A stretch of DNA of 64,000 nt from NCBI GenBank assembly GCA_963771885.1, contig CAVYVF010000023.1, forward strand, positions 832,001 to 896,000. The letters are read 5' to 3'. Origin of the DNA: Candidatus Bathyarchaeota archaeon (GTDB lineage Archaea; Thermoproteota; Bathyarchaeia; TCS64). The position numbers are program-made. Shown here in pieces: positions 27,001 to 33,000 of the stretch. Positions within the stretch are counted from its first letter, which is position 1. Every line of letters starts with the position of its first letter.

Positions 27001-30000
27001 ACAGGAATCACGGCTCTGAATACGCTTCTCATAGACGATTATAAAAGAAATTCCTCGAAACATTGCGTATGCGACAAACTGCGAAAGGGCTCCGTATATT
27101 GAGGCGTATGGTGAACCATTAACCGAAACAGTATAAAAACTACCTGTATAACTCCGACATTTGACTTTTCCATACAAACATCTAGTGCTACAGTGATCAT
27201 CGCATTGCTCGGATGATGTAAAACAGGATAGCCTAAACCCGGAAAGATAACCCGCCTGATAAAATGGTAATTGAAACATCTATCCAATCGACGCAGCATC
27301 TACACTTCAGAGGTATAGGGCATGTCATTCGATAAAAGGTGGGCAGGCTCAGATTCCCCGCCCCTTGGCAAGGCACTTAAGGATATGATTAATCCCCCGG
27401 GTGCGCTCAAGCCGCGCATGGAATACGCCACGAAGCGGATACAGACGCAGGTCCAGAAGCTGGACCGCGAGTCCCAGCGCATGGCCGAGAGGGACAAGAG
27501 TCTCTTTGCCAAGGTCGTCGATGCCTACCAGAAGCACGACACCCCACATGCAAACATCTACGCAAGGGAACTCGCCGAGCTCCGGAAAATGCAGAAGACG
27601 ATACTCAACGCGAAACTCGCCCTCGACCAGATAATGATGCGCATTGAGGCGGTGAGCGAGCTAGGTGACATCGCTTACACGTTGCTGCCCGTAATCGGCG
27701 TCATGCGCGACGTCATGATTGGGATGTCAAGTGTCAACCCCCAGATAGCCAAGGAAATGGGTGAGATCAGCAACATCCTCAGCGGTATAGTAATGGATGC
27801 TGGGGCGACAGGTGGCATGACCCTCAACTTCGAGTCTGCGAATGAGGACTCCGCCAAGATAATGGAGGAGGCCGCTAGCGTCGCAGAGTCTAGGATGAAG
27901 GACACCTTCCCCGAACTACCTAAGGACGGCAGACTCCCTACCTAGGCAACCATTTTATCCGCCGAGGCGCAGCCGTTGGTGAGCCAGTTGAAGGTATCGA
28001 TAAGCCTCGGCGGAAGCCTCCTCACCCGCACCATGGACGCCGCTTCCTATAGCCAATACGCGGACGTCCTCAGACGCTTACACGATGGGGGGCACACGGT
28101 TGTCGTTACCTGTGGAGGCGGCAGACCCGCCCGCCAATACATCTCGATAGCCAAGGATTTGAACTCCTCACGGAGTCTCCAGGACAACCTGGGGATACTG
28201 GCGACACACGTCAACGCCCTCCTACTCATTGCTGCGCTAGGCGACGCCGCAGATCCGCGGGTGCACCGCAGAGCCGATGAGGTGAGGCGCCACCTCGGTG
28301 AAAGGATACTAGTAGGCGGAGGCCACAAGCCGGGAAGCAGCACAGACTACAGGGCTGTGATATTCGCTGAAGCGATCTGCGCGGACCTGATTATCAACGC
28401 CACCGACGTCCCCGGTATCTACGATAAGAACCCCAAGACCAACCCAGACGCCCGCAAACTTGATACACTTAGCTACGCGGAACTTGAGATAATAGTCAAG
28501 GCGAACACTCGTCAGGCACCGGGCGAGTATGGACTTTTTGACCTTAAGGCGGTCGGGCTCGCTGGAAGGCTTGGCATACCCCTCATCTTCGTCGATGGCA
28601 CAGACCCTGAGGAGATAATAAGAGCGGTTACGGGTGGGCATCATGGCTCGACGGTCCGCTGAGCCGTCGGTTAAACTGAGAAACGGTACTTAAATTACTG
28701 TTAATCCCGTTCATCGACCAAGAAAAAATGGTTATTATCGGTTCAGACTGAAAACACTAAAGATAGATGAAACGAAGTCTAAACTACCCATTTTCATTGG
28801 AAGGGTGCTGAAGCAACCATCAAGACAAGGTAACCTATATATGGCGTGATCCATAGAAGGTGCGTCGAGGCCGAGGAAACATGAGTGGAAACGCCCCCCT
28901 AGACAGGCTACGCGCGCAGAGGATGCTTGAGCAGCTCGAGAACCTGCAGGGGCGTGGCACCGAGCTCGTCAGCGTCTACGTACCCCCTGGCAAGCAGGTC
29001 TCTGAGGTCATGAATGACCTCGAAACGAGTGGGGCACCGCAGTAAACATCAAGTCTAAGACGACGCGAAAGAACGTGCAGGACGCCTTCACGAAGGTCAT
29101 GGAGCGCCTCAAGCTCTTCAAGACCATACCCCCCACCGGTGTGGCCATATTCGCGGGCAACATCGCGAGCAACCAGCTCGGCGTTGGTGACATGCAGACC
29201 TTCGTCATCGTCCCCCCCGAGCCCATCAGCATCTACTACTACCGCTGCGAGCACCAGTTCCTGCTCGATCCACTATTCAACATGCTCGCCGCCAAGGACA
29301 TCTACGGCCTCGTCGTCATAGACTCTAAGGACGCTATCTTCGGCTTCCTCAAGGGCAATCGAACCGAAATTATAAAGCAATACAGCAGCGGGGTTCAGGG
29401 CAAGACGCGCGCTGGAGGCCAGTCGAGCCGGCGCTACGAGCGCCTTCGGGACATGCATCTTAACGAGTGGTATATACGACTCGGCGGCTATTTCACCGAG
29501 CACTTCCGTGGTGTCCCCGGTCTAAAGGGTATGATCGTCGGTGGTCCCGGCCCCACGAAGGAGGACTTCATTAACGGTAATTATCTCCACTACGAGCTCA
29601 AGGACAAGGTGCTCGCCCAAATCGACACCGGCTATACGGGGCCTGAGGGCATAAAGGAGCTCGTCAACCGCAGCCGTGACATTATGAAGGACGCCCGCTA
29701 CTACGAGGAGCGTAAGAACGTCCAGGAGTTCCTCAAGCACCTCGGTGCTGACGACGGCCTTGGAACATATGGTGAGCAGGAGATATTCCAGGCGCTCAAG
29801 GGGCAGAACGTCCAGCTCCTCCTCATAAGCGAGAACGTCCGTCGGACCCTATTCAGGCTCAAGTGCAAGGCGTGCGGTCACGTGGAGAACAAGGTAGTCG
29901 ACAACGACAAGGCCGTCGATTTCGAGTCCAACCTCTCCTCATTCAAGTGCTTAAAGTGCGGCGGTGAAGTCGAGCTTCTTGAGAAGAAGGACCTCATCGA

Positions 30001-33000
30001 GGCGCTCATCGAGATGGCGGAGGTGGCGAACGCGCGCGCTGAGCTCATCTCCGGCAACACGGAGGAGGGTGACATGCTCCTCCGCAGTTTCGGAGGCCTA
30101 GCCGCGGTGACGAACTACCGGACCTTCTAGCCCTTTCTCTTCTTCAGGTAAACGTCTATTACTGGATCTACACACTCCCATTCCCCGTCCTCGGCAAGGA
30201 CTTGCCTATCCTCTTCAGAGGTCGGTACGGTTTCGAAGCTGCATCCCTCGTCCCCAAGTATCATGTTCTTTGTATGTATCATCTTCTTCGAGGGGTCGGT
30301 GGCCATTGTCTTTGCGGGGTCAATTAGGCAGTAGAGGGCGCCGAGTTCAGGCTCGCCTAACTCCATCATTACCTTGCCTAGCTCGCATAGCTCCGGTTTG
30401 CCCTCCCTGCGCTCCCAGAAGCCGTACCGTGGGAGCCCCTGGTGACCTGCCGCTGTCCAGTTAGCGACGTTGACTCCGTACTTCTTTATCGACTTGAGTA
30501 TCAGTCTCTTTCCCTCTTCCCAGCCAAACTCGTCTACGAGTGTCCGGGCGTAGGAGAGGTGTAACAGCGCGAGGCGCTGGGTGACGACCTTGACCTCGTT
30601 CTCCGCCTCGTTCAGCGGTACCATCTTCTCGGGCAACTTGATCGATCGACCCTGTGGACTGGGGCAATAAAATGGTTTAGCCTGCGGGGGTGGGTATCCA
30701 CCACTCCTCACCACGCTCCGTGGTGATGTACTCGGGCCACCTCATGTCGACGGGGGCCTTGAAGTCCTTCGGGAGCAATGGTGGGACCCACTTGGAGCCG
30801 CCTATGCCTCCGCCTGTCCTCTCCTCGAACTCCTTCCTGCACTGGGCCAGCTCCGCCGGCTTAGTGAGGAGGTCCACCAGGGTCGCCCCGATCACCTTGC
30901 CTCCGGTGAATATCATGGGGTCGATCGTGGCGGGATAACCAGCCATGGCGTTGCCCGCCCAGTGGGGGTATGAGTATCCGGGTTTAGGTGCCTTGAGTAC
31001 GGCCTTCGCCGTGAACATCCTTACGGACGGGCTGTGCCAGGTGTAGTCGACGTAGTCGTCGGCGCCGAAGTGCATCTGCCATGGCTCAAGTGTCTTCCTC
31101 TGCTCCGCCTCGTAGTCGGCGGGAGCTATTAGCTTCTGGCACGCCTCGGTGAATGGGTCCTCCATGGGTTCGAGGCCGAGGCTCTCCTGTATCTGGCGGC
31201 CGAACTTTTTCGCTTTGTCCCCGTACTTGGTTGGTCCCACGATCTCGTGGTTAGAGTAAGTTATGTCCGTCAATGCGTTGTTGGGTAGGCCGACGCGTGT
31301 CTTCGTCACCCACCTAGTTGTGAGCTTGCAGAAGGCTATCTCGGCGACGTGCTTGGCGTTGTTCTCGAGCACGTCGTATATCTGTTGCGCCATGGCGAGG
31401 GTGGGCGTCCTCCAGGCGTACTGTATCTGCCCAATTCTAGGCGGTAGGTTGTCGCTGGTGCACTGTCCCGCTACCATGACGAACTCGTTCAGCGTCCAGT
31501 AGCCGCCATGGGGGAGCATCGCCTCCTTCGTGTACTTGGTCGTCGTGTACATGAGGCAGATTGCGTCAAGGGCTGCTGGGCACCTCCCGCCCGCGTGCCC
31601 TCCAACCTTCATCGGCCCCATCGGTTTGAACCACTTCTCTGGCTCCAGACACTCGAAGGTGAAGACTACGCTCCAGTAAGCGCCCATCTGCGTCTCCTTG
31701 AGCGCCGTGTTGACAAATGACGGGTGGTAGCAGATGGAGGCGTCGTGGTCGTCGAAGTAGCCCCACGCGGCGTGGACGGGTTTGGAGCCGCAGACCTTCT
31801 CGGCCGGCTCACCGAATATCTTGAGGGTACCCTTGAGACCATGTTTGTCCATTGCCGCTTTGGCGGCTAGGATGCCAGCGAGCGCCGTAGTGCCCAGCGC
31901 AGAGTGGGGGTCGGTGTGTCCGGCTGCCCACCTGTTCAAGCCGTCCCGGGGTTCTTGCCTCGGCACGGGCTTCTGTGAAGTGCCAGGCACAGCGTCATAC
32001 TCCGCGTATGTGGCTAGCACCGGCCGCCCTTCCCCGTATGTGGCTAGGAAGGCAGTTGGCATCCCGCCCGTGCCCCTCGTGACCTTGAATCCCTCCCCCT
32101 CAAGCAGCTTACAGTAAGCCGCAGAGGACTTGTACTCCCTCCACGCGGGCTCGGCGAAGCCCCATATCTTCTTGTCGAAGGACGATATCATCTTCTCGTT
32201 AGCGTCGACCCAGTCGAGCGCCGTCTGCTTCTCCCTAGAAACCTTGACCATGAACCCACACCTGGTTCAGATCAGATGAAAAGGCGATTTATAATTTGCC
32301 TAAACTAAGCGTGGGGGGAATGGACTCACTTGATGAAGCTGGTCTCGGTGACCGGGCCGCCCTGCGGTAGGGTGCCCTCCCAGCTGAATGTCGAGCCCTC
32401 GCCGACGTGGCTTATCGAGACCGTGTGCGTCGGCATCCAGACGACGGGGGCCGAGACTATGATTGTCCAGCCTCCGCTCTTGTACTCTATCTTCGTGGCG
32501 CCGACGATTCCCTCTGGGACGAGGTTCTTTTCCGTCCACTCGATGGGTATCTCACCAACTGCCTCTGGATGCTTCTCGACTAGATAATCGAGGCACATCT
32601 TGCGCGCAATGTCTGGGGTGTAGATGAGCCTTGGCATCGTGTCAGGGTCACCCTCGGGTGTCACCTCGCCGCTCTGATCTACCTTGCCCGTCCACACCGT
32701 CTCACCCTTCTCGATGGTTATGGTGTAGGTAGGCTTCCAGACGACGGCGTTCTCGACAGTAACCGTCCAGTCACCGCTAGTATATCGGGTCTTCTGTGCG
32801 CCGAGTATCCCCTCGGGAGTCAGGTCCTCAACCTTCCACTCTTGCGGGATTAGGTCCGTCATGCCGAGGCTCTCGATGAGCCGGAGAACTGCTGCATCCC
32901 TGGCGTCGTCGATCGTCAGGATTATCTCCTGGTTGCCTGTGGGCTGCTGCTTGAGCTCGTCCCACACGTCATCTATCTGGGCGAGGGTCACAACACCCTC

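Follow-up and report, generated by a model that had tools for sequence, protein, structure and literature searches.

The window (i.e., the whole 64,000-nt stretch of DNA analyzed here) carries a gene for the archaeal release factor aRF1 at positions 28881 to 30130 (Table 1). The neighboring amino-acid-kinase-family gene lies between the aRF1 and Pelota (aDom34) genes in other Bathyarchaeia (synteny in L078, L079, and L083). The genome-wide survey's note had assigned positions 29075 to 30130 to aRF1; the identity holds and the extent does not, as that ORF represents only the C-terminal 351 codons counted from an internal GTG, and the ATG at 28881 is the start conserved in relatives. The 369-amino-acid (aa) downstream part of the product scored 418.6 bits against NCBIfam TIGR03676 (aRF1_eRF1; cutoff, 234.7) and matched the Pfam domains eRF1_1, eRF1_2, and eRF1_3 (E values of 4.5e-9, 3e-31, and 1.8e-19, respectively). 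TAVNIKSK and TRAGGQSS were read in the translation, and the stop-codon motif NIKS and the peptidyl-hydrolase motif GGQ are conserved in 43 of 43 aligned aRF1 sequences. No uninterrupted aRF1 reading frame was found in the window's assembly, in which a 1-nt deletion at 29021/29022 switches the reading from frame 1 (...VMNDL) to frame 3 (RNEWGTAVNIKS...). Since the frame is open in all seven congeners (416 to 424 aa) and an extra A follows position 29021 in four of four metagenome contigs from four studies, the apparent split looks like an assembly indel. Judged from its sequence, the locus is an ordinary and putatively functional aRF1 gene. It is also the sole three-domain eRF1-family gene of the genome, as the survey had reported, and a search of the genome again gave a single eRF1_2 match.

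Table 1. Features in the window and one related gene outside it (window positions unless a contig is named)
Feature	Position	Strand	Evidence or remark
Amino-acid-kinase-family gene, directly upstream of aRF1	27976..28662	+	Pfam AA_kinase, E = 1.3e-27
aRF1, N-terminal 47 codons (MSGNAPLD...VMNDL)	28881..29021	+	Frame 1 until the indel; same N terminus in 7/7 same-genus aRF1 genes
1-nt deletion splitting aRF1	29021..29022	+	CTCGA in the window; CTC-AGA/CGA (L-R) in relatives
aRF1, remaining 369 codons and stop	29021..30130	+	RNEWGTAVNIKS...GGQ...zinc ribbon...TNYRTF; encloses the earlier ORF 29075-30130
Peptidyl-tRNA hydrolase Pth2	45734..46078 (G000:C23:877734-878078)	-	PF01981, 138.9 bits
Two-domain Pelota-like paralogue (outside the window)	G000:C23:321134-321814		Own copy of the genome

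Searches for Pelota bore out the earlier claim that the canonical protein is missing from this genome and from its whole order (TCS64). In the window's genome (92% complete, 6.7% contamination, with at least two indel errors in the assembly), TIGR00111 matched only aRF1 (58.2 bits; cutoff, 177.65). Class-specific full-length and N-domain profiles run with hmmsearch --max on its 31,757 six-frame ORFs of at least 40 aa recovered only aRF1 and a two-domain paralogue, and the best N-domain match with filters off had an E value of 0.21 over 34 residues. Across the order, 0 of 79 genomes (all metagenome-assembled genomes [MAGs], 58 to 98% complete) exceeded the TIGR00111 cutoff. A profile of 12 Bathyarchaeial Pelota N-terminal Sm-like domains likewise gave no match below an E value of 0.17 in any of the 79 genomes (four short noise matches, the best over 27 residues). 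The order genomes G011 (one contig, 2.3 Mb) and G072 (six contigs) were rechecked with the class-specific profile and contain no Pelota. These absences are judged by sequence profiles, which a non-homologous or unrecognizably divergent sensor domain would escape. As positive controls, 107 of 149 Bathyarchaeia outside the order passed the TIGR00111 cutoff and 7 more carried Pelota pieces (114/149 in all), and a match at an E value of 1e-25 or lower was found in 188 of 201 Thermoproteota.

The absence of Pelota is accompanied by that of NFACT, which the survey had not noticed. NFACT is the homologue of Rqc2, NEMF, and RqcH and in other organisms acts on the large subunits freed when stalled ribosomes split. 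The NFACT-R domain (PF05670) was not detected in any of the 79 order genomes at an E value of 0.01 or lower. In the class sample, it matched 114 of 201 genomes, including 0 of 52 from the order and, within family f26, only the seven genomes of genus g64. The same 114 genomes were above the cutoff for NFACT_N (PF05833); the order yielded 0 of 52 above it and only ~25-bit matches (positions 161 to 239) to an unrelated ~530-aa ORF that also occurs in Pelota-bearing genomes. When two Bathyarchaeial NFACT proteins were searched against the window's genome with tblastn, the best E value was 0.86. A cross-table of the class sample counted 110 genomes with both proteins, 4 with Pelota only, 4 with NFACT only, and 83 with neither. 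Of the 114 Bathyarchaeia in the sample that bear Pelota, 110 have an NFACT gene (~680 aa), and NFACT is missing in 83 of 83 genomes that have neither Pelota nor its pieces and no sign of incompleteness. The linkage is imperfect (i.e., 4 + 4 exceptions), and most of the exceptions look like assembly gaps. A literature search found no report of a Pelota and NFACT co-loss, which to our knowledge has not been described before.

The survey had presented the loss as order-wide. This stands for the order itself, but the loss is not specific to it: genera g49, g59, and g78 of a second Bathyarchaeial family (f26) also have no Pelota, with only aRF1 in 29 of 29 genomes, as rechecked in 5 of the 29, three of which consist of 3 to 5 contigs. 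The gene order aRF1, amino-acid kinase, Pelota, M50 peptidase, PP-loop, S7, EF1a, and S10 is common to family f17 and the sister genus g64. In three of three g78 genomes with 3 to 5 contigs, the sequence is contiguous across this site, and a stretch of ~950 nt that contains three small, unrelated ORFs takes the place of Pelota. In a quick single-gene tree of aRF1, the order forms one clade (SH-aLRT, 89), and f26 is nested in a clade of Pelota-bearing families with a support of 99. Because the f26 genera lack Pelota exactly at the syntenic site that is filled in their sister genus, at least two independent losses of Pelota are counted. At least one further clade of Bathyarchaeia has thus undergone the same double loss on its own. 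Independent loss events are few, with two of them firm; G079 and G081, two additional single genomes, are only 87 to 89% complete.

On these grounds, we consider it very probable that canonical three-domain Pelota and NFACT have really been lost from this genome and from the whole order; this judgment applies to the loss itself and to no single rescue route. With both proteins lost, the whole branch of ribosome rescue leading from Pelota to ribosome-associated quality control (RQC) would therefore be gone.

The survey's note had also named a truncated paralogue as a potential substitute. Such a protein exists (mini-Pelota; ~226 aa) and consists of the central and C-terminal domains behind a basic N-terminal tail, with only ~10 residues ahead of the central domain and no Sm-like sensor domain. 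It scored 29 to 36 bits on TIGR00111, and no GGQ was found in 12 aligned sequences. In a profile-profile comparison (hhalign), it matched positions 133 to 356 of Bathyarchaeial Pelota with a probability of 97% (E value, 1e-10) versus 3% for aRF1, and the best PDB folds for its AlphaFold model (pLDDT, 85) were archaeal Pelota and yeast Dom34 (3oby, 3wxm, 3j15, and 2vgn). Chains of Balon, a bacterial hibernation factor, were also among the fold matches. The similarity to Pelota, the strong conservation, and the retention in 35 of the 52 genomes that represent the order in the class sample speak for a rival reading, in which mini-Pelota could still work at the A site and would carry the Pelota function by binding there with aEF1-alpha and recruiting ABCE1, so that the factor would be remodeled rather than lost. 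We consider this unlikely. Neither a three-domain architecture nor orthology to Pelota was found for mini-Pelota, which is a paralogue that stands beside full or fragmentary Pelota in 44 of the 44 non-order genomes in which it was detected (E value of 2e-30 or lower). Its occurrence in Pelota-less lineages is patchy (i.e., 0 of 6 genomes of families f2 to f4, 0 of 29 in the second Pelota-less clade, and none in genera g11, g10, g5, and g4 of the window's family). It is without the domain that senses the empty mRNA channel, and NFACT, whose substrate is split subunits, has been lost even where mini-Pelota is kept. As a simple replacement for Pelota, this old, class-wide paralogue was rejected.

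A true Pelota orthologue might instead be present but so diverged, split, or recoded that the profiles miss it. The profiles do have limits, since the Pelota of family f51 scores as low as 60 to 89 bits on TIGR00111, and the order is represented by MAGs throughout. Nevertheless, the same search still detected the divergent f51 protein in four of four checked genomes over its full length (positions 14 to 348, N domain included; E values of 1e-16 to 1e-25), and stop codons and frameshifts are no barrier to six-frame searches. The class-specific N-domain profile, which found nothing in the order or, with filters off, in the window's own genome, also speaks against a hidden orthologue, as do the small unrelated ORFs in the syntenic slot of the second clade. 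That NFACT was lost in parallel agrees with a true loss of the pathway, and we regard a concealed orthologue as very improbable. To attribute the absence to incomplete or misbinned assemblies is scarcely credible despite the variable completeness of the order genomes and the indels in the window's assembly, because aRF1-level cross-matches to TIGR00111 appeared in 64 of the 79 genomes in which Pelota and NFACT were each missed 79 times, the one-contig and six-contig genomes also lack Pelota, and the empty site of the second clade is contiguous in three of three genomes.

The analysis shows the absences, their phyletic pattern, the empty syntenic site, and the retained factors; how the cells cope is inferred. 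aRF1, aEF1-alpha, ABCE1, and Pth2 are all present; ABCE1, which the survey had listed as kept, is a 604-aa ORF on contig C22. Searches for an RF-1/ArfB domain and for tmRNA found neither, and we know of no other archaeal ribosome-rescue factor. Like other archaea, the order would run ordinary termination and recycling through aRF1, aEF1-alpha, and ABCE1. For stalled ribosomes, it is plausible, though short of probable, that no dedicated A-site sensor operates and that peptidyl-tRNA drop-off, Pth2, and slow turnover suffice; Pth2 could clear the dropped-off peptidyl-tRNA. An unrecognized non-homologous factor might clear them, which we hold to be possible but doubtful, and a contribution from the two-domain protein, where the order has it, appears rather unlikely. 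More generally, we can suggest only tentatively that an unrecognized route frees stalled ribosomes, be it a non-homologous factor common to the independent Pelota-less clades or the sensor-less two-domain Pelota in part of the order. Under such a route, the latter could be a new A-site factor, for example one that splits vacant or hibernating ribosomes with ABCE1.

Pelota is counted as a universal protein of archaea and eukaryotes. The survey's statement that Pelota is regarded as present in all archaeal lineages agrees with the literature (PMC6514570). Pelota is also listed among the markers for scoring archaeal genome completeness (PMC9258230), and the completeness of Pelota-less lineages is underestimated where it serves as such. 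As the two-domain paralogue is automatically annotated as "Dom34" (the JGI label is "stalled ribosome rescue protein Dom34"), the loss is hidden in annotation tables. The Pelota-less lineages are described as abundant sediment archaea. Free-living lineages with genomes of 1.5 to 3 Mb and neither Pelota nor NFACT constitute a natural experiment, with at least two independent replicates for seeking alternative rescue routes by phylogenetic profiling. From the joint loss, we argue that NFACT in archaea relies on ribosome splitting by Pelota; if true, the recurrence of this joint loss would provide the first comparative evidence placing archaeal NFACT strictly downstream of Pelota.

Among known systems, mini-Pelota, itself a protein of the aeRF1 superfamily, resembles the domain-reduced members of that superfamily (i.e., acVLRF1 and those baeRF1 families that have no flanking domains, as described in PMC6514570) and Balon in having no N-terminal decoding or sensor domain and no GGQ. 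Unlike the reduced families, which that paper places on the aeRF1-like side, it groups with Pelota/Dom34, a clade said there to hold classical Dom34 proteins only (Burroughs and Aravind 2019, PMC6514570). NFACT-based RQC (Rqc2/NEMF in eukaryotes and RqcH in bacteria) has been traced to LUCA in the same paper (PMC6514570). The Pelota-bearing Bathyarchaeia conform to this system in nearly all cases by encoding NFACT, while all 79 order genomes and the second Pelota-less clade depart from it. With respect to archaeal Pelota-aEF1-alpha-ABCE1 rescue and splitting (3wxm and 3j15; Dom34-Hbs1-Rli1 in yeast), aEF1-alpha and ABCE1 are encoded, as is an intact aRF1 that works with these two partners, but none of the 79 order genomes has a three-domain Pelota or its Sm-like N domain. 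Yeast dom34 deletion mutants are viable, with fitness costs in some backgrounds, and a cell with eRF1 and ABCE1 thus survives without Pelota. Those are laboratory mutants, whereas in the Bathyarchaeia entire natural lineages have become fixed for the loss of Pelota and have lost NFACT as well.

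Pelota (aDom34), the three-domain ribosome-rescue factor, had been reported by the genome-wide survey's note as missing from this genome and from the entire order TCS64, and further profile searches upheld the absence at both levels. In the six-frame translation of the genome (G000), Pfam eRF1_2 matched at one place, the single aRF1 match that the survey had described, and eRF1_3 likewise matched at one. The pelota profile TIGR00111 (cut-off, 177.65 bits) found only aRF1 (58.2 bits; profile positions 90 to 349). Two profiles were then derived from 12 Bathyarchaeial Pelotas, one of the whole protein (A2) and one of the N-domain alone (A3). 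When 31,757 stop-to-stop ORFs of at least 40 aa were searched with all filters off, A2 matched aRF1 (E = 7e-10) and a two-domain paralogue (E = 1e-5) and nothing else at E <1, while the best A3 match covered 34 residues (E = 0.21). A three-domain Pelota was thus matched by none of the TIGR00111, A2, and A3 searches of this genome.

None of the 79 genomes of the order exceeded the TIGR00111 cut-off, and the N-domain profile found nothing in any of them (four matches at E = 0.17 to 0.9 spanned just 18 to 38 residues). The TIGR00111 matches in the order fell into two classes, namely, ORFs of ~420 aa (i.e., aRF1) and ORFs of 231 to 295 aa that aligned only to positions ~135 to 348 (E = 1e-9 to 1e-4). 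By our count, an aRF1-type match at E <= 1.1e-13 was present in 64 of the 79 genomes, which provides an internal control against assembly gaps. The set includes a one-contig genome of 2.3 Mb (G011) and a six-contig genome (G072); a recheck of these two and of one representative of each of the order's three other families with the class-specific profile found aRF1 only. There is no genome reduction in the order, whose members (1.5 to 3.1 Mb) match or exceed Pelota-bearing Bathyarchaeia in genome size.

The same profiles recovered Pelota elsewhere. In a class sample of 201 genomes (completeness of at least 85%), 107 exceeded the TIGR00111 cut-off, and the order, with 52 genomes in the sample, contributed none of them. 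Pelota pieces, interrupted by frameshifts or lying at the ends of contigs, were present in seven further genomes. Of 201 genomes sampled across the phylum (completeness of at least 90%), 188 gave a match at E <= 1e-25, and 8 of the 13 without one belong to a single family (f51). In all four f51 genomes checked, Pelota was full-length but divergent (positions 14 to 348; E = 1e-16 to 1e-25; ORFs of 358 to 376 aa), so the method detects strongly diverged Pelotas, N-domain included. On TIGR00111 the f51 Pelotas (loci L062, L063, and L064) score 60 to 89 bits, well under the cut-off, and cut-off-based annotation would therefore call Pelota absent there.

A second Pelota-less clade was found in family f26, which belongs to another order according to taxonomy labels and divides cleanly. 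Of the seven genomes of its genus g64, six carry Pelota; in the class sample, by our count, Pelota is missing from all 29 genomes of genera g49 (n = 11), g59 (n = 2), and g78 (n = 16). Five of these 29 were rechecked with profile A2 and showed aRF1 only; three of the five are assemblies of 3 to 5 contigs with 96 to 100% completeness. The gene order in two g64 genomes and one genome of family f17 is aRF1/amino-acid kinase/Pelota/M50 peptidase/PP-loop ATPase/S7/EF1-alpha/S10. The same block is intact in all three g78 genomes inspected, but its kinase and M50 peptidase genes are separated by ~950 nt with three small ORFs (winged-helix-like, ~96 aa; small, ~60 aa; CutA-like, ~105 aa; labels from sequence reading alone), and tblastn detected no Pelota remnant at the site at E <= 1e-3. 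Synteny settles the absence in g78 in favor of a deletion. In a quick single-gene tree of 43 aRF1 sequences, the 16 sequences of the order form one clade (SH-aLRT, 89), and f26 is nested within a clade (99) that also contains f15, f17, and f20, families in which Pelota is present; inside f26, g78 joins the Pelota-bearing g64 (89), separate from g49 and g59. From these placements, at least two independent losses of Pelota, and possibly three, are therefore needed.

Around aRF1 in five genomes of the order, we found neither Pelota nor a conserved Pelota neighborhood; only the adjacency of the amino-acid kinase gene and aRF1 survives, and the old block is otherwise dispersed. In one genome of the order (G004), a 1.3-kb gap between the kinase gene and aRF1 holds a restriction-endonuclease-like ORF.

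Locations of the genes, ORFs, and vacated site discussed in the text
Feature	Location	Strand	Remarks
ORF of 207 aa, two genes upstream of aRF1	window 27322-27945	+	weak sub-threshold match to Snf7 (ESCRT-III-like; 23.7 bits; cut-off, 27.3)
Amino-acid kinase gene	window 27976-28662		aRF1 follows (kinase-aRF1 adjacency in the window)
Pth2	window 45734-46078	-	
Mini-Pelota, own copy	G000:C23:321134-321814 (L038:5135-5815; L041)		outside the window
aEF1-alpha	contig C23		431 aa
ABCE1	contig C22		604-aa ORF
Vacated Pelota slot, genus g78	L084:4292-5257, L085:2649-3691		three small ORFs conserved between the two genomes
Restriction-endonuclease-like ORF, 396 aa	L112:4601-5791	-	G004; between the kinase gene and aRF1, which adjoin each other elsewhere in the order

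NFACT proteins (i.e., Rqc2/NEMF/RqcH homologues) work downstream of ribosome splitting, and for this reason they were searched for as well. PF05670 (NFACT-R_1) matched ORFs of ~680 aa in 114 of the 201 class-sample genomes, all over the cut-off, including none of the 52 genomes of the order and, within f26, the seven g64 genomes only; the identical 114 genomes exceeded the cut-off of PF05833 (NFACT_N). Across the order as a whole (79 genomes), PF05670 had no match at E <= 0.01, and two Bathyarchaeial NFACT proteins reached E = 0.86 at best by tblastn against G000. Nine weak PF05833 matches in the order (~25 bits; positions 161 to 239; ORFs of ~530 aa) were rejected as NFACT because NFACT-bearing genomes have the same match as a second one, which points to an unrelated protein. 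Class-wide, ORFs of ~526 to 559 aa match NFACT_N at these positions with ~25 bits (e.g., G048:C1:46341-46580 and G002:C62:12353-12589); this looks like a common helix-hairpin-helix-like segment of an unrelated protein.

When the two losses were cross-tabulated over the class sample (our count), 110 genomes had both Pelota and NFACT-R, and 83 had neither (52 of the order, 29 in f26, G079, and G081). Pelota alone occurred in four (G091, G185, G209, and G211, of which G185 does have an NFACT_N piece) and NFACT alone in another four (G092, G100, G110, and G170). The missing Pelota looks like an assembly gap in G092 and G110, whose congeners have it (G130 and G148 for the former; G114 for the latter), and in G170, since it belongs to g64. 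G100 (97% complete; the sole sampled genome of its genus) shows aRF1 only and may represent either a gap or a loss. Related genomes are not independent cases; what carries weight is the two or more separate events rather than the 83 genomes.

The ORF at 29075 to 30130 (+) had been noted as aRF1; its identity holds, and its extent has to be corrected. With the three forward frames read from 28860, it proves to be the 3' part of a longer gene, in which frame 1 gives MSGNAPLDRLRAQRMLEQLENLQGRGTELVSVYVPPGKQVSEVMNDL and then a stop, and frame 3 takes over at 29021 with RNEWGTAVNIKSKTTRKNV... up to the stop at 30130. The 369 downstream residues score 418.6 bits on TIGR03676 (aRF1_eRF1; cut-off, 234.7) and match Pfam eRF1_1, eRF1_2, and eRF1_3, and both NIKS and GGQ occur in the translation. 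The gene is therefore aRF1, running from 28881 to 30130, with a 1-nt deletion at 29021/29022. All seven same-genus aRF1 genes examined are open across 416 to 424 codons and read ...MNDLRNEWGTAVNIKS... over the indel site, and contigs from four public metagenomes of four studies (95 to 99% identity to the window) all have an extra A behind 29021. A programmed frameshift is not supported, since the break is not conserved, and the split is best read as an assembly error. The mini-Pelota gene of this genome (i.e., that of the two-domain paralogue) has an inserted A 12 nt after the start relative to a 93%-identical congener (G000:C23 ~321130; L038:5135-5150). Single-base indels thus affect at least two conserved genes of the assembly, so other split genes of G000 may also be artefacts. 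A CxxC...CxxC zinc-ribbon insert (CKACGH...CLKCGG) lies in the C-domain of aRF1 (window 29900 to 30050) and is kept in all seven congeners; an insert of this type is mentioned for the Pelota domain in PMC6514570. No aRF1 changes common to both Pelota-less clades were seen in the 43-sequence alignment, which was inspected by eye and shows conservation of NIKS and the YxCxxxF region throughout. The aRF1 gene itself is ordinary; the oddity is a gap in the gene repertoire of the genome.

Mini-Pelota is a well-conserved family of ~226 aa with a basic N-terminus (MPRRGRRGYPTAILIG...; RRGRRGYPTAILIG), a C-terminal RLxQLGG motif, and no GGQ. A profile-profile comparison aligned it to Pelota positions 133 to 356 (probability, 97%; E = 1e-10), versus a probability of 3% for aRF1. 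The best PDB folds for its AlphaFold model (pLDDT, 85; pTM, 0.76) were archaeal Pelota (3oby, 3wxm, and 3j15) and yeast Dom34 (2vgn), with aRF1/eRF1 and Balon ranking lower. Mini-Pelota thus consists of a Pelota-type central and C-terminal domain and lacks the sensor domain. A complex prediction with the genome's own aEF1-alpha scored 0.00 and was weighed neither way. At E <= 2e-30 in the class sample, mini-Pelota was present in 35 of the 52 genomes of the order, every one in the window's family; it was absent from all six genomes of the order's three other families, from genera g11, g10, g5, and g4, and from all 29 Pelota-less genomes of f26 that form the second clade. It also occurs in 44 genomes outside the order, all of which have Pelota, full or fragmentary (our count). 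The suggestion that a truncated paralogue took over from Pelota is therefore disfavored, at least as a simple replacement, by the patchy distribution and the co-occurrence; mini-Pelota is an old paralogue, which certain lineages without Pelota happen to have kept. In JGI's annotation it bears the name "stalled ribosome rescue protein Dom34"; NCBI lists it as hypothetical, and the automatic name may have hidden the loss of Pelota in annotation tables.

Both the factor that senses an empty or blocked A-site and the tagger of obstructed large subunits are gone, and the termination/recycling core is kept, including ABCE1, as the survey's note had stated. Neither an RF-1/ArfB-type domain nor tmRNA was found in G000. 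Termination and post-termination splitting run through aRF1, aEF1-alpha, and ABCE1 in other archaea, and normal termination and splitting would proceed likewise here. We know of no substitute for Pelota, and three candidate routes may be considered. There may be no dedicated factor, with peptidyl-tRNA drop-off followed by Pth2, which could be tolerable in slow-growing sediment organisms; a non-homologous factor, unrecognized so far, may act instead; or, in part of the order, mini-Pelota might aid ABCE1 in splitting vacant ribosomes without mRNA sensing. The domains that mini-Pelota keeps are those that in Pelota reportedly contact aEF1-alpha and ABCE1 (structures 3wxm and 3j15). NFACT is missing even from genomes that retain mini-Pelota, which suggests that obstructed large subunits no longer arise in the usual way.

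These results confirm what the survey's note observed and support its reading of a Pelota loss, which is widened by the second independent loss and the co-loss of NFACT. Our literature search, which reached few subscription journals, found only eukaryotic mutant studies and no report of archaeal Pelota loss. The function of Pelota is supposedly universal in archaea; the exception described here, in abundant free-living lineages, is well supported. PMC9258230 lists "protein pelota homolog (COG1537)" among archaeal genome completeness markers, and PMC6514570 traces Rqc2 back to LUCA. The Dom34-like clade is described in PMC6514570 as consisting of classical Dom34 proteins alone.
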